Assembly (NCBI GenBank): GCA_035545835.1
Contig: DASZXO010000022.1
Coordinates: 1,092-65,091, forward strand
DNA from: Lacunisphaera sp.
Lineage (GTDB): Bacteria; Verrucomicrobiota; Verrucomicrobiia; Opitutales; Opitutaceae
DNA: 64,000 bases
Reading direction: 5' to 3'
The notes beneath the pieces were generated by a model that saw only the letters and a list, made by a program, of their open reading frames with translations, was not told the DNA's origin and did no database searches. Made by a program: the position numbers and the translations under genes. Below, piece by piece: positions 22,677 to 32,113 of the stretch (position 1 is the first letter of the stretch; each line of letters starts with the position of its first letter).

Positions 22677-22822
22677 AGATTTACGCCGGCGGACGCGCGC
22701 CGCGGAAGCCGTTGCCGGACTAGGCCAAACGAGTGAATCCTCCCGCGGCGGTCGCGGCCGGCTGGCGAAATGCATTGCCGTGGGACACGGTTTTGGGACG
22801 TAATCGCGCCGAGTTCCACGCC

Positions 22823-25800
22823 ATGGCCACCGCCACGACCCTGAACAAAGAACAGAAGCGGCACCTGCTGCTGACGATGCTGGAGAGCCGCCTCGGCGAC
22901 CTGCGCGAGGAGAGCCTGAACCGCCAGGGCAAGGGTCACTTTCACGTCTCGGGCCGCGGGCACGAGGCGTTGTGCGCCCTCGGCGCGCAGCTGCGCGACA
23001 GCGATTACCTGGTGCCGTATTATCGCGACCGCGGGCTGTGCCTGGGGCGCGGCCTGACGACCAAGTACCTCGCCCTGGAATATTTCTCGAAGCGCGACTC
23101 GGCCTCGCGCGGCCGGATGATGCCCTCGCACTACTGTTCGCGGGAGCACAACATCGTGAGCGTGCCGACGCCGACCGGGTCGCAGCTCCTGCCGGCGTGC
23201 GGCATCGCCTGGGGCCTGCAGCTCGACCAGAAGGATGGCGTCGTCGTCACCTGCATCGGCGACGCGGCCACCCGCCAGGGCGACTTCTACGAGGCGCTGG
23301 CCTTTGCCCAGGAAAGGAAGCTGCCGCTGCTCGTGGTCGTCGAGGACAACGCCTACGGCATCTCGACGCCGACGCGGAAGACCAACCCGCTGGCGCTGGC
23401 CGTGCTCAACCAGGCGCAGTGGGTCGAGGTTGACGGCGCCAACGCCGAGGCCGTGCACGCCGCGTCGCGCCAGGCGCTCGCGGAGCTGCGCGAGGGCCGC
23501 GGCCCGGTGTTCCTGTGGGTGCGGGTCGAACGGCTGTCGAGCCACACGAGTTCGGACGACCACAGCCTGTACCGTTCGAAGGAGGACCTGGCGGCGCTCG
23601 AGCAGGCCGACCCGATTCGCAACCTGAAGCTGCGGATGATCCAGGACGGCGAGCTGACCGAGGCGGAGTTCGCCGCCCTCGAGGCGGAGCTCAAGGAAAA
23701 GGTGCGCCGGGACTACGCCGCCGCCGAACAGGCCGAGAACCCGCGCGCCGACGAGCTGATGCTCGAGACGCTCGCACCCTCGCCGGAGCTGAACGAGGAA
23801 CTCTTTCCCGCCGGCAAGTACCGGATGGGCGACCTGATCAACCGCACGCTGCGCGCCGGGCTCGATGCCGACCCGGGCCGCATCATCTTCGGCGAGGACG
23901 TCGAGGACCCGAAGGGCGGGGTGTTCCGGCTGACCCAGAAGCTCACGACGGATTTTCCCGGCCAGGTGTTCAATTCCCCGCTGGCGGAGTCGACCATCGT
24001 CGGCCTCGCGGGCGGGCTGGCGCTGTACGGCCGCCGGCCGGTCTTCGAGATCCAGTTCATCGATTTCATCTTTCCCGGCTTCAACCAGCTCGTCTCCAAC
24101 CTCGCCAACCTCCGCTGGCGCACGAACGGCGAGTGGAAGGTACCCGCGGTCATCTACGCCCCGTATGGCGCGTACCTGCCCGGCGGCGGGCTGTGGCACT
24201 CGCAGGCCAACGAGGCGGCGTTTGCGCACTTTCCGGGCATCAATGTCGTCGTGCCGAGCACGCCCGAGGACGCCGCCGGCCTGCTCTGGACGGCGATGCA
24301 CGCGGAGGACCTCGTGCTTTTCCTCCTGCCCAAGCACATGCTGTGGGCGGAGCGCGCGGTGGCGGAGCCGGTGATGTCGGTGCCGCTCGGCGTCGCGCGC
24401 CGCTGCCTCGAGGGCACCGACCTCACGCTCGTCGCCTGGGGCAACACGATGGAGAAGGCGTACGAGGCCATCGCCCAGCTGAAGGGCGAGGTCGGCGTCG
24501 ACCTGATCGACCTGCGCTCGATCGTGCCCTGGGACAAGGCGCTGGTTGAGGAGTCCGTCCGCCAGACCGGCCGGCTGGTCGTCGTGCAGGAGGACACGGA
24601 GAATTGCTCCGTCGGCCAGATGATCATCACGCACGTCATGGGCCAGCCCGACTTGTGGGCGGGGATGAAGGCCCCGCCGGTGCTCGTGTCGAAGGGCAAC
24701 GTGATGATCGGCTACAACCCGATCTACGAATATGCCGCGCTGCCGGACACGCCGCGGATCGTCGACGCCATCTGGCGCACGGTGTCGGTGCACCACGCGC
24801 ATGACGAGTCCATGGCCTCGAGCGTCGCGCCGATGCCGGTCGCGCCGGCCGCGGCGCCCGCCCCGGCCGAGGGCCACGCGCCGCAGAACACCGTGATCGC
24901 CGGGACCAGCGACATCATCGTCCGCGTGCCGATCATGGGCGAGGGCCTGCGCTCGGCGCGCGTGGTCTCGCTCAACAAGAAGCCCGGCGATCCCGTGCAG
25001 CACGACGACGTGCTCTGCGAGGTCGAGACCGACAAGGCGGTTTACCCGATCGAGGCTTCCTTCGCCGGCCAGCTCAAGGAATGGCGCATCCAGCTCGATG
25101 ACACCGTGCTCATCGGCCAGGACATCGCGGTCGTCACCGGCGATGCCGCCAGCGTCGCGGCCCTGCCGGTGGAGGGCGCCGCGCCCGCGGCCACGGTGGC
25201 CAAACCGGCCGCGGTCGCCCCGGCCCGATCGGGCGCCGGGTCCGACCCCGCGAAGGCGGGGACCAACCCCGCCGTGCCGGCAAAGATTTCCAACTCCCCC
25301 GGTCCCATGAAAGGCAACACCCGTCCGCCCGCCCTGCACCCGGCCATCACCAAGCGGCTCGATGCCGTCGTCCCCGCCACCATGCTCATGGATGTCCGCT
25401 GGGAAAACCTGCGGCTGGCCCGGGAGGAGGCGAAGAAGAAATTCGGCCAGAATGCACCGTCGCCCTCGGCGATGATGGCGTGGTGCATCGTGCGGACCCA
25501 GGAGAAGCACGCGGCCTTCCGCTGCGTCGTCAATCGCGAGGGCGCGATCCTGGAGCAGGCCGACTTCGAATGTGGCGTGGCCGTCGCGCTCGACGGCGAC
25601 CGCCTCGCGACGGCCGCAATCCCGGCCGCCAACCGCCTCGGCTGGGCCGATTTCGTCGCGGCCTACCACCGGGCCGTGGAGGAGACCCGCGCCGGCCGCC
25701 TGATCGACGTGCAGGCGCCGATGAACATCACCAGCCTCGGCGCGTTCGGCGTCGAGAGCGCGACGCCGATCGTGGTGCCGCCGGCCATGGCGACGATCTT

Positions 25801-25969
25801 CCTTGGCTCGGCGCACGAGCGCCTGATCAACGACGGCGGCGTGATCCATCCCGCCGAGGTCATCACGCTCTCGCTGACATTTGACCACAAGGTCGTCAAT
25901 GGCGCCGGCGCCGCCTCCTTCATGCGCGACCTGCGCGTGGAGCTGGAGGGCTTCCGGCTGCCCGGGTGA
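22823..25969 (+). CDS. Single-chain 2-oxoacid dehydrogenase: E1alpha + E1beta + lipoyl domain + E2 acyltransferase core (branched-chain type likely)
   Basis: GDAATRQGDFYE...EDNAY TPP motif; RLSSHTSSDD; FGEDV..GGVFR, SPLAES and GLWHSQ; ETDKA lipoyl lysine; TFDHKVVNG E2 catalytic motif; one uninterrupted frame. Start ATG 22823. Confidence 0.92.
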   Translation: MATATTLNKEQKRHLLLTMLESRLGDLREESLNRQGKGHFHVSGRGHEALCALGAQLRDSDYLVPYYRDRGLCLGRGLTTKYLALEYFSKRDSASRGRMMPSHYCSREHNIVSVPTPTGSQLLPACGIAWGLQLDQKDGVVVTCIGDAATRQGDFYEALAFAQERKLPLLVVVEDNAYGISTPTRKTNPLALAVLNQAQWVEVDGANAEAVHAASRQALAELREGRGPVFLWVRVERLSSHTSSDDHSLYRSKEDLAALEQADPIRNLKLRMIQDGELTEAEFAALEAELKEKVRRDYAAAEQAENPRADELMLETLAPSPELNEELFPAGKYRMGDLINRTLRAGLDADPGRIIFGEDVEDPKGGVFRLTQKLTTDFPGQVFNSPLAESTIVGLAGGLALYGRRPVFEIQFIDFIFPGFNQLVSNLANLRWRTNGEWKVPAVIYAPYGAYLPGGGLWHSQANEAAFAHFPGINVVVPSTPEDAAGLLWTAMHAEDLVLFLLPKHMLWAERAVAEPVMSVPLGVARRCLEGTDLTLVAWGNTMEKAYEAIAQLKGEVGVDLIDLRSIVPWDKALVEESVRQTGRLVVVQEDTENCSVGQMIITHVMGQPDLWAGMKAPPVLVSKGNVMIGYNPIYEYAALPDTPRIVDAIWRTVSVHHAHDESMASSVAPMPVAPAAAPAPAEGHAPQNTVIAGTSDIIVRVPIMGEGLRSARVVSLNKKPGDPVQHDDVLCEVETDKAVYPIEASFAGQLKEWRIQLDDTVLIGQDIAVVTGDAASVAALPVEGAAPAATVAKPAAVAPARSGAGSDPAKAGTNPAVPAKISNSPGPMKGNTRPPALHPAITKRLDAVVPATMLMDVRWENLRLAREEAKKKFGQNAPSPSAMMAWCIVRTQEKHAAFRCVVNREGAILEQADFECGVAVALDGDRLATAAIPAANRLGWADFVAAYHRAVEETRAGRLIDVQAPMNITSLGAFGVESATPIVVPPAMATIFLGSAHERLINDGGVIHPAEVITLSLTFDHKVVNGAGAASFMRDLRVELEGFRLPG

Positions 25970-27538: not shown

Positions 27539-28081
27539 CTACCGCGGCAGCCCGGCTTCGCGTGCGACCCGCCGCAACGGCTCGTCCTGCGGGTAGATCT
27601 GCAGGAACTGTTGCAGGAAAAGGTCGGTGGCCGGGCTGAAGTTGGCGTGGTTCACCTCGACGCCGTCGCGGCTGACGAGCACGACGTGGCAGAGGAAGCA
27701 GAAGTCGCAGGTCACCACGTCGGCGCCGTGGTGGAAACGGAGCCGCAGGTAGAGCGACGGCCGCCGGCCGCCGTGCGCCCGCCAGTCGTAGGTCTTTTCA
27801 TCCAGCAGCAGGTCGCGCAGCGCCCCGGCGACGGGCGCCGGCACGACCGTGAACGTCGTGTCCTCGTAGCGCTCGGTCTTCCAGTCGATCCGCCCGTCGG
27901 GCAGCTCGGCGGCGGGAATGTGCCTGAGCAGGCAGCTGTCCACCCGGTCGGCGGTGCGGACGATGCCGAGGTTTTCGGGCGAGCCAAAGAGGCGGGCGAC
28001 ATCCTCCGGGTGGTCGGCGGCGGGCGCGGCGCCGACGCCGAGCAGGGCCGACAGGGAAATGAGGGAACGCTTCATGATCAT
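27539..28081 (-). CDS. Hypothetical secreted protein with CxxCxxC (CDFCFLC) motif
   Basis: Signal peptide MIMKRSLISLSALLGVGAAPA; start overlaps the mutase stop (ATGA at 28081-28078). Confidence 0.7.
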   Translation of the reverse strand: MIMKRSLISLSALLGVGAAPAADHPEDVARLFGSPENLGIVRTADRVDSCLLRHIPAAELPDGRIDWKTERYEDTTFTVVPAPVAGALRDLLLDEKTYDWRAHGGRRPSLYLRLRFHHGADVVTCDFCFLCHVVLVSRDGVEVNHANFSPATDLFLQQFLQIYPQDEPLRRVAREAGLPR

Positions 28082-29823
28082 ACCATGGGCCGGAATTTTC
28101 CGACGATGCCGGTGAGACAGGCGGTGATCTGGCCGAGGGAGCACACTTCCACCGTCGACACGAGCTCGGCGAAGACGTTCCCACCGCCGCGCACGACGTT
28201 CTCCAGGCGCTGCAGCGCGGCGGGCGCCTGCTTCGCATGCCGGCGCTTGAAGGCGCGCAACCGTTCGACCTGCAGGCGCTGCCGGCGCGGCGGGGTGCGG
28301 GCCAGCGGGACATGCGGCATCGGCTCATCCGTCTTGTAGCGGTTGAGGCCGATGATGGGCCGGGCGCCGCCGTAGACCTGCTCCTCGTAGGCGTGGCCGG
28401 CCTCCTGGATCTTGCTGCGCTGGTAGCGCTGCTCCTGCGCGGCGAGCACGCCGCCGAGCGTGTCCATCTCGCGGAACACGTCGAGGATCGCCTTCTCCAC
28501 CTGCTGCTCGAGGACGAGCAGGCCGGGCGCGCCGCCGAACATGTTCATCATGTGTTTGAACACGCCGGACTCCTCGAGGATGATCGACTGGCCGTGCGAG
28601 GCGAGCGTGGCGTATTTCTCCGTCGGCGTCGTGAACGGCTCGTCCGCGGAGTTGGAGTGGCACGAGTTCGTGTAGTTGAGGTAGGCGAGCATCAGCTCGA
28701 CCGCCGTGCGCGTGAGGTTGTTCTGGAACTCGGCGGCGATCAGCGAGCGGCCGGAGGTCTGCGTGTGGAGCTTGAGCAGCTGCGCCTTGCTGGAGGCGCC
28801 GAAGACGTCGCGCATGCCGATGGCCCAGAGGCGCCGGGCCACGCGGCCGAGCACGAGGTATTCGACGTCGAGCCCGCAATCGAGGAAGAACGACAGGCGC
28901 GGGCCGAACTGGTTGACGTCGGCGCCGCGCTGCTTGAGCAGCTCGACGTAGGTGAAGCCGTTGGCCAGCGTGAAGGCGGCCTGCTGCACCGGCGTCGCCC
29001 CGGCCTCGGCGATGTGGTAGCCGGAGATCGAGACGGGGTACCAGCGCGGCAGGTTCGGCACGCACCACTCGATCATGTCGCAGAGGAACCGCAGCGACGC
29101 CTCGATCGGGAAGATGACCTCGTTCTGCGCCTGCACTTCCTTCAGCATGTCGGCCTGGATCGTCCCGCGGAGCTGGGCGAGGCAGCCCGGCCCGAACCGG
29201 CGCTTCGCGGCGGCGATGAACATCGCGAGGATGACCGGCGCCGGCGCGTTCATGGTCATCGAGACGGACGCATCCTTCCGCGTGAGGTCGAAGCCGGCGA
29301 AGAGCCGGGCCATGTCCTCGACGGTGTCGATGGCCACGCCGCCCTCGCCAACCTTGCCGAGCACGCCTGGGTGGTCGGAATCGAGGCCGTAGAGCGTGGG
29401 CCCGTCGAAGGCCGTCGAAAGCCGCAGGCTCTTCTGGTGCGAGCTGAGGTAGTGAAAGCGCTTGTTGGTGTCCTCGGCCAGCCCGAGCCCGGCGAACAGC
29501 CGCATCGGCTCCTCGCCGGCGCCGCTGTCGCGGTCGAGATACATCTCGCGGTAGGCGGCGTTGGCGTAGGGGAACTCGCCCGGCAGGCCCTGGCCGAGGA
29601 GGTAGCTGGCGATGACGCCCGGGTCGTCGGTCTGGGGCAGGGCGAGGCGCGGCAGCGGCGTGCCCGTGGGCGACACGGTCCAGTCGATCGACTCGTGGAT
29701 TTGGGCCCAGCGCTCGCGGAGCTCGGCAGCGAAGCGGGTGTCGGTGCGCGCACGGGCCACCTCGGCGGTGACATGCGCGTTGTAGGCGTCGACGGCGTCG
29801 GCGATGCGTCCGAGCTGGCTCAT
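28078..29823 (-). CDS. B12-dependent acyl-CoA mutase substrate-binding subunit (C-terminal half of split IcmF, isobutyryl-CoA mutase type)
   Basis: PMRLFAG, RLSTAFD, QADMLKEVQAQN, ISGYHIAEAGA, LSFF and HTQTSGRSL; no B12-binding domain at the C-terminus. Confidence 0.9.
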   Translation of the reverse strand: MSQLGRIADAVDAYNAHVTAEVARARTDTRFAAELRERWAQIHESIDWTVSPTGTPLPRLALPQTDDPGVIASYLLGQGLPGEFPYANAAYREMYLDRDSGAGEEPMRLFAGLGLAEDTNKRFHYLSSHQKSLRLSTAFDGPTLYGLDSDHPGVLGKVGEGGVAIDTVEDMARLFAGFDLTRKDASVSMTMNAPAPVILAMFIAAAKRRFGPGCLAQLRGTIQADMLKEVQAQNEVIFPIEASLRFLCDMIEWCVPNLPRWYPVSISGYHIAEAGATPVQQAAFTLANGFTYVELLKQRGADVNQFGPRLSFFLDCGLDVEYLVLGRVARRLWAIGMRDVFGASSKAQLLKLHTQTSGRSLIAAEFQNNLTRTAVELMLAYLNYTNSCHSNSADEPFTTPTEKYATLASHGQSIILEESGVFKHMMNMFGGAPGLLVLEQQVEKAILDVFREMDTLGGVLAAQEQRYQRSKIQEAGHAYEEQVYGGARPIIGLNRYKTDEPMPHVPLARTPPRRQRLQVERLRAFKRRHAKQAPAALQRLENVVRGGGNVFAELVSTVEVCSLGQITACLTGIVGKFRPMV

Positions 29824-31031
29824 GCGGTCACCTCCATCCAGCAGGCCTTGTCGCCGCCGGTGGACGGGGCGAGGCCGCCCCGCTGCGCGAGCGCGTCAAA
29901 GAGGGCGTCCACGCCCGGGTCGAAGTGCCGCGCGGCGGTGGTCGGGTAAAGCCGGCGGCCCTTGCCGTCCTGGTCCAGCCGCGCCTGGATCTCGGCGCGG
30001 GCCGTGTGCGCCATCGGGTGGTCGCACTTGTTCAGCGCGACGAAATCGGCGCCCGCCAGCAGCGCGATCTTCTGCAGCTGGATGCGGCCGCCGTAATGCG
30101 GCGGCAGGACGAAGAGCGTGGCATCGACCAGCGGTGGCCCGCGGCCGAAGGTGCGGAACGGATCGCTTTCCTGGCCGACACCGACGGACTCGACGAGGAC
30201 CAGGTCGAACTCGCCGGCCTCGCGCAGGATCCCGATGGCCGCGGGCGCCGCGGCCGACAGGCCGGTGAGGCTGCCGCGCGTCGCGAGCGAGCGGAAGAAC
30301 ACGCGGTCGTCCTGGGCGTAGATGGCGGAGACGCGGTCGCCGAGGATGGCGCCGCCGGAGTCGGGATGCGACGGGTCGTTGGCCAGGATCGCGATGCGGC
30401 CGCCGGGGCAGCGCCGGAGAAAGCGGGACACGAGTTCGTCGATCAGCGTCGATTTTCCGGCGCCCCCGGGTCCGGCCACGCCGAGGACAAAAGCGCGCGA
30501 AGCGCGCTTCAGGTGTGAGGCCGGAGGTTTGAGGGGGGAGGGGTTCGACTCCGCCAGCGTGATGGCGCGGGCGAGGGCGCGGTCGCCCGTGAAGCGGGCG
30601 TTCGGCCGGCCCGGGCGCGCATAGTCGCGCTTGATGGTGGCCATGATCTCCGCGAGCGGCGTGCCGGCGAAGAAGATGCGGTCGGTGCCCTGCCGCTTCA
30701 TCACGCGCTCGTCAGCCGGCGTGATCGTGCCGCCCCCGCCGCCGAAGACGGGGATGTCGCCGCCGCCGCGCTGCCTGAGCTGGGCGACGACCTCCCGGAA
30801 GAAGACGATGTGGCCGCCGTTGTACGAGCTGAGGCCGACGACGTTGACGTCCTCCTGCACCGCCGCGCGGACGATGGCGGACACGGGCTGGTGATAGCCG
30901 AGGTAGATGACCTCGATGCCGTGGCTGGCGAGCTCAAGGTTGATCGTGGTCACGGCGCTGTCGTGGCCGTCACAGAGCGGCACGGCCGTCAGGATGCGCA
31001 CGGGGGCGGGGGCGTGGGAACGGGCGGACAT
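29820..31031 (-). CDS. Cobalamin-binding domain + MeaB/ArgK-type GTPase chaperone (N-terminal half of split IcmF)
   Basis: CDGHDSAV (DxHxxG-like), [41 protein letters not shown] and NKCD. Start ATG 31031. Confidence 0.9.
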
Positions 31032-31159: not shown

Positions 31160-32113
31160 ATGCACTTTCGCGACCTGAACGAGGCACAGCTCCTCGCGGT
31201 GGCCATCGGCGCCGAGGAGGAGGATGCGCACATCTACCGGGACTTCGCCGCCTCGCTGGAGGCGGAATTCCCCGCCTCGGCCGAGCTCTTCCGGCGGATG
31301 GCGGAAGAGGAGTCGAACCACCGCCACCGGCTCATCGAGGCCTACCGCCGGAAATTCGGCGAACACATCCCGCTGATCCGGCGGCAGGACGTGAAGGGTT
31401 TTCTCGTGCGGCGGCCGTCCTGGCTGGCGCGCACGCTCCGGCCGGAGACGGCGCGCGGGGAGGTGGCGTTGATGGAACTCGAGGCGCGGCGCTTCTACGA
31501 GGCGGCGGCGGCCCGGAGCACGGATGCCGCCATCCGCCAGCTGCTGGGCGACCTCGCGCAGGAGGAGCAGAAGCACGAGGCCACGGCCGAGCTGGTCGGC
31601 GGCGCGCAGGAAGCGTCCGGGCAACTGCACGAGGAACGGCTGGCCGCGCGCCGGATGTTCGTGCTGCGTTTCGTGCAACCGGGCCTGGCCGGGCTGATGG
31701 ACGGATCGGTCTCGACGCTCGCGCCGCTGTTTGCCGCGGCCTTCGCCACCGGCAACACGTCCGAGACCTTCAAGGTCGGCCTGGCTGCGTCGGTCGGCGC
31801 CGGCATCAGCATGGGCTTCGCCGAGGCGCTGTCCGACGACGGCAAGCTCAGCGGACGCGGCGCGCCCTGGCTGCGCGGCGTGGTCTGCGGCCTGATGACC
31901 ACGCTCGGCGGCATCGGGCACACGCTGCCCTATCTCATCCGCAACTTCCACACCGCGACGTCGGTGGCGATCGCGGTGGTGGTGGTCGAGCTCGGCGTGA
32001 TCGCCTGGATCCGCAAGCGCTACATGGACACGCCGCTGCTGGCGGCGATCTCCCAGGTGGTGGTGGGCGGCGTGCTCGTGTTCATCGCCGGCTGGCTGAT
32101 TGGCGCCGGGTGA
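31160..32113 (+). CDS. mbfA: Rubrerythrin-VIT1/CCC1 fusion iron exporter
   Basis: EEED..IY and [10 protein letters not shown] ferritin-like motifs; [23 protein letters not shown] and [14 protein letters not shown]. Confidence 0.93.

Follow-up and report, generated by a model that had tools for sequence, protein, structure and literature searches.

The window analysed here, a stretch of 64,000 nucleotides (nt), comes from the metagenome-assembled genome (MAG, 93% complete) of a Lacunisphaera species of the Opitutaceae (Verrucomicrobiota; assembly GCA_035545835.1, contig DASZXO010000022.1, positions 1,092 to 65,091 of the forward strand). On its minus strand lie two overlapping genes which together carry the domains of IcmF, the single-chain isobutyryl-CoA mutase (ICM). 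Gene 1 encodes a B12-binding domain fused to a MeaB-like G-protein chaperone and gene 2 a mutase barrel preceded by linker-type helices. We describe this pair, which probably forms a two-subunit IcmF-type acyl-CoA mutase, and compare it with known systems. In window coordinates the features (lengths and residues in amino acids, aa) are:

29820..31031, minus strand: gene 1, putative small subunit, B12-binding domain fused to a MeaB-like G-protein domain, 403 aa from ATG.
30624..30998, minus strand: B12 (cobalamin)-binding Rossmann domain, gene 1 aa 12-136, with the DGHD motif; TIGR00640 matches aa 11-136.
29883..30584, minus strand: MeaB-like G domain, gene 1 aa 150-383, from Pfam MeaB and motif alignment to IcmF.
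29820..29835, minus strand: junction of Shine-Dalgarno GGAGGT, 6-nt spacer and ATGA, read directly in the sequence.
28078..29823, minus strand: gene 2, putative large subunit, N-terminal linker-type helices and substrate-binding TIM barrel, 581 aa.
29599..29823, minus strand: N-terminal segment of gene 2, aa 1-75, helices 3-27 and 29-45, homologous to the conserved part of the IcmF linker.
29494..29496, minus strand: codon of Phe110 (RLFAG), specificity position, 4xc6 chain residue 618, the native Phe598 of Cupriavidus metallidurans IcmF.
29125..29127, minus strand: codon of Gln233 (EVQAQN), specificity position, 4xc6 chain residue 762, the native Gln742 of C. metallidurans IcmF.

Pfam places a B12-binding domain at aa 12-109 of gene 1 (E 7e-15) and a MeaB domain at aa 153-380 (E 6e-38), the latter matching positions 1-230 of the 273 of its profile; the C-terminal dimerisation arm of MeaB is absent. 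The top phmmer match of gene 1 in the PDB is IcmF 4xc6 (chain 46-433, E 6e-64), in whose alignment His23 falls on His59 of the 4xc6 chain. This histidine lies in the DGHD motif (D21 G22 H23 D24), which is invariant in the alignments A1 and A3, and is the predicted lower axial ligand of B12. The G domain shows the motifs GPGGAGKST (187-195), ESVGVGQ and NKCD, with P-loop, switch II and NKxD all intact, and its switch III residues Q318 and K321 align with Q341 and K344 of IcmF. G-motifs, Q318/K321 and DGHD are invariant across the 31 split homologues of alignment A3. The AlphaFold2 (AF2) model of gene 1, with a predicted local distance difference test score (pLDDT) of 84 and a predicted TM-score (pTM) of 0.86, fits the N-terminal half of IcmF over its whole length (query TM-score, TMq, 0.84; root-mean-square deviation 3.4 Å). 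Past the G domain follows a variable tail that is predicted to be disordered. Upstream of the ATG at 31031 the reading frame continues open to a GTG at 31187; the ATG agrees with the 395-425 aa of the homologues and leaves 128 nt before a divergent gene at 31160.

Gene 2 matches Pfam MM_CoA_mutase over aa 75-572 (E 2e-118). Its top phmmer match in the PDB is again IcmF 4xc6 (chain 470-1110, E 3e-126), ahead of the large subunit of 2-hydroxyisobutyryl-CoA mutase (HCM; 4r3u_A, 7e-93), which is IcmA-like and served in place of IcmA in this comparison, and of methylmalonyl-CoA mutase (MCM, about 1e-80). Foldseek ranks the AF2 model in the same way, with IcmF 5cjt_A as best match (TMq 0.85) against 0.71-0.72 for HCM and MCM, HCM scoring 0.71. 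The first ~45 residues form two confidently predicted helices (pLDDT 87-94 for residues 1-40); their alignment with 4xc6 chain 470-503 is weak, and they align with the RNYLxxI...Y linker helix of the fused forms P0133 and P0201. It follows from the latter alignment that the split lies directly after the last helix of the G domain, with the ordered part of the linker encoded by gene 2. The original prediction, made from the sequence alone, had taken this segment for a linker remnant: its homology to the linker stands, its decay does not, since what is predicted is a confident pair of helices aligned to the IcmF linker.

Of the equivalog model of IcmF, NCBIfam NF045497, gene 1 covers positions 2-393 (262 bits) and gene 2 positions 506-1073 (537 bits), so the pair is collinear with IcmF. 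Both specificity residues are also those of IcmF. Phe occupies the column of gene 2 residue 110 and Gln that of residue 233 in 27 of 27 split and 15 of 15 fused IcmF sequences, where the MCM of Rhizobium, ScpA, has Tyr and Arg. We take the Phe598 and Gln742 columns to decide ICM versus MCM specificity, a role reportedly described by Cracan and Banerjee in 2012 and by Jost and colleagues in 2015. The motif around the Gln reads EVQAQNE in split forms versus EDQ(G/A)QNT in canonical ones. Around the Phe, the Chthoniobacterales gene 2 reads RLFSGLML in place of RLFAGLGL. Just ahead of EEP(T/M)RLF, a low-complexity insertion of ~10-45 aa is seen in gene 2 of Chthoniobacterales and of one congener (G275; L035, L037, L066, L099).

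At the junction, ggatGGAGGTgaccgcATGAgcc, the Shine-Dalgarno GGAGGT occupies 29835-29830 and the gene 2 ATG (29823-29821) overlaps the gene 1 TGA (29822-29820). The original prediction had thus described the locus well: the B12-binding plus MeaB-type GTPase of 403 aa and the mutase barrel of 581 aa agree with the Pfam domains and coordinates, the ATGA overlap with GGAGGT 6 nt before the second ATG is there to be read, Phe and Gln stand at residues 110 and 233 where ScpA has the Tyr and Arg of MCM, and its view of an IcmF domain order cut in two is borne out by the collinearity of both halves with NF045497 and 4xc6.

GTDB species genomes were scanned and the best 80 loci taken, 77 of which had enough DNA for a census of the junction. 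Identities among the best 80 are 67-80% in Opitutaceae and 50-56% in Chthoniobacterales, Udaeobacter and 'Spartobacteria'. In 77 of 77 loci gene 2 starts with Met-Ser, encoded by ATGAG(C/T), at the position of residue 1 of the window gene 2. The junction itself varies: 42 loci have the ATGA overlap, in nine the genes are 0-30 nt apart and in 25 they are 31-250 nt apart, and in L028 gene 1 has a premature stop. In several of the spacer-type loci both genes lie in the same frame with an intervening stop. Nine congeneric genomes have gene 1 at 78-81% identity, in each with a stop after ~400 aa and a separate gene 2, and both open reading frames (ORFs) are intact in relatives at 50-89% identity. 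An even sample of 401 Verrucomicrobiota genomes, 12 of which have the gene, was searched for the gene and for a fused form, and no fused IcmF was found in it. Two long open frames turned up in this sample, and that of G275 alone was read in detail; its 1011 aa result from an upstream run-on through an AsnRS region, genes 1 and 2 being split with an ATGA overlap, and it was rejected as a fused gene. The other, in G182, has 832 aa. On the sequences compared, the two-gene split is genuine and conserved in many Verrucomicrobiota.

A few relatives carry premature stops. In L028 (3501-4700) gene 1 stops at codon 120, and in L065, L080 and L081 gene 2 is shortened to 327, 452 and 154 aa; these may be decaying copies or errors of MAG assembly. 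One locus, L032 (contig DASUTR010000975.1), was binned as Polyangiaceae (Myxococcota), and its two genes are 67% and 74% identical to their Opitutaceae counterparts, which suggests mis-binning or horizontal transfer.

Within the 93%-complete genome no second mutase barrel, no other MeaB-like domain and no other B12-binding mutase subunit were found. With one barrel and one MeaB-like domain in the genome, each half is left without any other partner. The claim that the chaperone is fused only to the B12 domain agrees with this, as no stand-alone MeaB was found beside it.

In IcmF, GTPase activity requires Q341 and K344, and the G domain is a monomer when GDP is bound (Vaccaro et al. 2023, PMC10481361). 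GTP makes it pair with its counterpart in a second IcmF molecule and wedge the B12 domain open for loading of adenosylcobalamin (AdoCbl; PMC10481361). Based on domain content, collinearity and specificity residues we propose, with a probability of about 0.8, that genes 1 and 2 encode the two subunits of an IcmF-type AdoCbl-dependent acyl-CoA mutase, most likely interconverting isobutyryl-CoA and n-butyryl-CoA. The association of the subunits, their activity, their substrate and the chaperone mechanism are what we infer. The small subunit would bind B12 via His23 and bear its own MeaB-like GTPase; the large subunit would provide the substrate barrel together with the helical linker, a covalent connection in IcmF. 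Translation would be coupled by the ATGA overlap and the Shine-Dalgarno site, such that both subunits are made together. Their assembly would then be non-covalent, with the B12 domain seated on the barrel in the manner of IcmA/IcmB or MCM. If the mechanism follows that of IcmF, the G domains of two complexes could pair in a GTP-dependent way, via switch III Q318/K321 and the helix after NKCD, and wedge the B12 domain off the barrel. Once opened, it could be loaded with AdoCbl by a PduO-type adenosyltransferase, or relieved of a damaged cofactor.

Several points weigh against this proposal. The two NF045497 scores add up to ~800 bits, under the curated cut-off of 1500, which makes the pair a divergent lineage. 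The AF2 model of gene 2 is of moderate quality (pLDDT 67). Searches of the 93%-complete MAG yielded no adenosyltransferase of either the PduO or the CobA type; a PduO-type enzyme is present in 10 of 11 congeners and CobA in 0 of 11, and the missing adenosyltransferase is most likely an assembly gap. The gene neighbourhood is conserved only among close kin, and some related B12-G genes have no adjacent barrel gene, so small subunits of this kind are not always paired. Finally, the Phe/Gln pair is also found in IcmFs that turn over isovaleryl-CoA and pivalyl-CoA (PDB 5cjv, 5cjw), and the physiological substrate may thus differ from the one proposed.

This last point bears on the rival that survives best: the same two-subunit architecture might act mainly on another substrate, isovaleryl- or pivalyl-CoA as in a pivalyl-CoA mutase (PCM) or another short branched acyl-CoA. 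Besides the binding of both compounds by IcmF itself (5cjv, 5cjw), it draws on the divergence of the split clade from canonical IcmF, seen in the family score and a long branch, on the EVQAQNE motif where canonical forms have EDQ(G/A)QNT, and on locus L030, whose flanking genes, for an acyl-CoA dehydrogenase and a carboxyltransferase, recall leucine catabolism. Every member, however, has the ICM/IcmF residues at both specificity positions, and efficient PCM activity in IcmF reportedly needed the Phe to be replaced (F598A), such that we consider a different main substrate unlikely.

Far less probable is that the gene 1 protein is mainly a free-standing B12 carrier or chaperone which forms no stable catalytic complex, with gene 2 being inactive or served by another B12 subunit. 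This idea finds some footing in two B12+MeaB fusions that are 43-51% identical to gene 1, P0129 (402 aa, L097 353-1561) and P0123 (388 aa, L098 2968-4134): no barrel gene lies within the downstream DNA scanned, 4 kb in L097 and ~440 nt in L098, and the scanned neighbours of P0129 in L097 have no Pfam match. Against it stand the lack of a B12 domain of its own in gene 2 in a genome that yielded no other such subunit, the adjacency and translational coupling conserved in 77 loci, and the superposition of the whole predicted gene 1 structure on the N-terminal half of IcmF. The weakest rival, in which a recent frameshift, or an indel from sequencing or assembly, has broken a fused icmF, is ruled out by the comparative data, for although a 4-nt overlap in different frames could also result from a single-base indel within a fused gene, the same split residue recurs in all 77 related species-level loci, part of these have intergenic spacers of 0-250 nt, several with a stop between two genes in one frame, the gene 2 ATG has a Shine-Dalgarno site ahead of it, no fused form was found in the 401 sampled genomes of the phylum, and the two ORFs are intact, with conservation that reaches down to 50% identity. 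The original prediction had argued against an artefact from the junction alone and had suggested looking for the split point elsewhere; its presence in 77 species-level loci, down to ~50% identity and with varied junctions, settles the matter in its favour.

The mutase pair has the following genes around it:

22733-25969, plus strand: single ORF of 1078 aa with E1 alpha, E1 beta (Transket_pyr, Transketolase_C), lipoyl and E2 acyltransferase core of a 2-oxoacid dehydrogenase.
27539-28081, minus strand: gene 3, 180 aa, with a signal-peptide-like N-terminus (MIMKRSLISLSALLGVGAAPA), its ATG overlapping the gene 2 TGA (gtATGAtcATG).
31160-32113, plus strand: rubrerythrin domain fused to a VIT1-type membrane domain, divergent from gene 1 with a 128-nt spacer.

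Gene 3 has no Pfam or NCBIfam match and may be co-translated with gene 2. Both gene 3 and the E1-E2 fusion were considered as conserved operon partners and rejected: among the 80 loci, gene 3 is found only in the closest relative (L013), and the fusion is near the mutase pair in just two (L013 and L024, downstream). The rubrerythrin-VIT1 gene is likewise kept beside the pair only in L013. A FadB-like gene is also nearby, on the strand opposite to the mutase pair. These surroundings, and the acyl-CoA dehydrogenase and carboxyltransferase genes beside the pair in L030, agree loosely with branched-chain acyl-CoA catabolism, for instance from valine to isobutyryl-CoA, n-butyryl-CoA and beta-oxidation, and such a valine route via n-butyryl-CoA would bypass propionyl-CoA in a genome without MCM. 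As the neighbourhood is not conserved, branched-chain catabolism can only be suggested.

Within the genus-level genomes (G001-G024) the split pair and MCM largely exclude each other. Seven genomes have the split pair only (G002, G003, G006, G010, G012, G016 and G021), four have MCM with a stand-alone MeaB (G007, G008, G009 and G014), only G024 has both systems, and about half have neither. Databases annotate such genes as 'cobalamin-dependent protein' or 'methylmalonyl-CoA mutase'. Metabolic reconstructions that rely on such names may wrongly assign an MCM pathway to Verrucomicrobiota; in the present genome no other mutase was found.

A search of 1.8 billion representative proteins retrieved fused relatives at no more than 46% identity. 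In the barrel tree, rooted on outgroups of the MCM family, the 27 split sequences form one clade (Shimodaira-Hasegawa-like approximate likelihood ratio test, SH-aLRT, 99) that is sister to all 15 fused forms (SH-aLRT 91). The tree of the B12-G part has canonical IcmFs at its base and joins the split clade to the short fused forms as sisters. Barrel and N-part trees root differently, and the branches to the outgroups are very long. Approximately unbiased (AU) tests on the barrel data reject a clade of the split sequences with all four short fused forms (p 0.0005); a grouping with P0133 and P0212 is not rejected (p 0.057), and neither is, on the N-part data, a placement of all fused forms on one side (p 0.16). 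An old fission and a pre-fusion state are both compatible with these tests.

More tentatively, and with the odds rather against it, the half-fused form might be a distinct working design and possibly an evolutionary intermediate to IcmF, in which B12 subunit and chaperone fused first and the barrel joined later, the untethered B12-G subunit being an exchangeable cofactor cartridge. If so, the cartridge would leave the barrel for reloading or repair by the adenosyltransferase, rather than swinging open on a tether. IcmF serves as the model of B12 loading and repair by a G-protein chaperone acting on its client mutase, and a natural chaperone-B12 unit untied from the barrel lets the contribution of the covalent tether be asked. 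One may ask whether opening turns into dissociation, whether GTP still makes the G domains of separate complexes pair, and whether the B12-G subunit can take up its cofactor away from the enzyme. The split form may also inform the order of fusion events in the evolution of IcmF.

Among known systems IcmF (4xc6, 5cjt, 8ssl), called 'the notable exception' to stand-alone chaperones (PMC10481361), is closest. It has the same modules in the same order, B12 domain, MeaB-like G domain, linker helices and barrel, and is the top match of each half by sequence and by fold. The Phe/Gln pair, the G-motifs and the switch III Gln/Lys are held in common, and the MeaB dimerisation arm is absent from both. 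IcmF differs in being one polypeptide, whereas the window system consists of two ORFs separated by a stop codon, as do the 77 related loci. Some 110 model positions of the IcmF linker (394-505) and the IcmF insertion at 4xc6 chain 716-742 have no counterpart in the pair, and identity to the pair is only 33-46%. In the literature searched, primary IcmF papers being outside its scope, no description of a split or half-fused IcmF was found, nor was anything on the Tyr89/Arg207 residues. The half-fused layout is therefore new relative to that literature, yet not rare in databases, where more than 100 clusters of ~400-aa B12+MeaB proteins occur under names such as 'cobalamin-dependent protein'. The 'third organisation' of the original prediction holds in the former respect; any notion of rarity fails, the layout being common under generic names.

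The closest fused relatives are short IcmF-like proteins (clusters P0133, P0212, P0130 and P0201, 983-1064 aa, uncharacterised), which share RxFAGLGLxExTN and LKE(V/I)QAQNE with the pair and, like it, are without the long insertion. In essence they amount to the two genes joined end to end, the joint being longer by 6-40 residues (6-27 in relatives of about 1000 aa), but they are single polypeptides, only 33-52% identical to the window pair.

MCM with MeaB/MMAA has the fold, the B12 chemistry and the G-protein chaperone logic of the window pair. Its chaperone is a separate obligate dimer (PMC10481361). Its Tyr/Arg pair and a B12 domain C-terminal to the barrel are both missing from the window pair.

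In the IcmA/IcmB system of the Streptomyces type, barrel and B12 domain are on separate polypeptides that need non-covalent association, and their genes are adjacent. A three-gene cluster of B12 small subunit, large subunit and meaB is found beside IS6100 on a plasmid of Sphingobium sp. YC-XJ3 (L096, 1905-5010); its large subunit, with Leu and Asn in the specificity columns, is neither MCM-like nor ICM-like. In the IcmA/IcmB type a third gene encodes the chaperone and the small subunit is the B12 domain alone (~148 aa in L096), whereas the small subunit of the window (403 aa) includes the chaperone and the barrel of gene 2 bears the N-terminal helices of the IcmF type.

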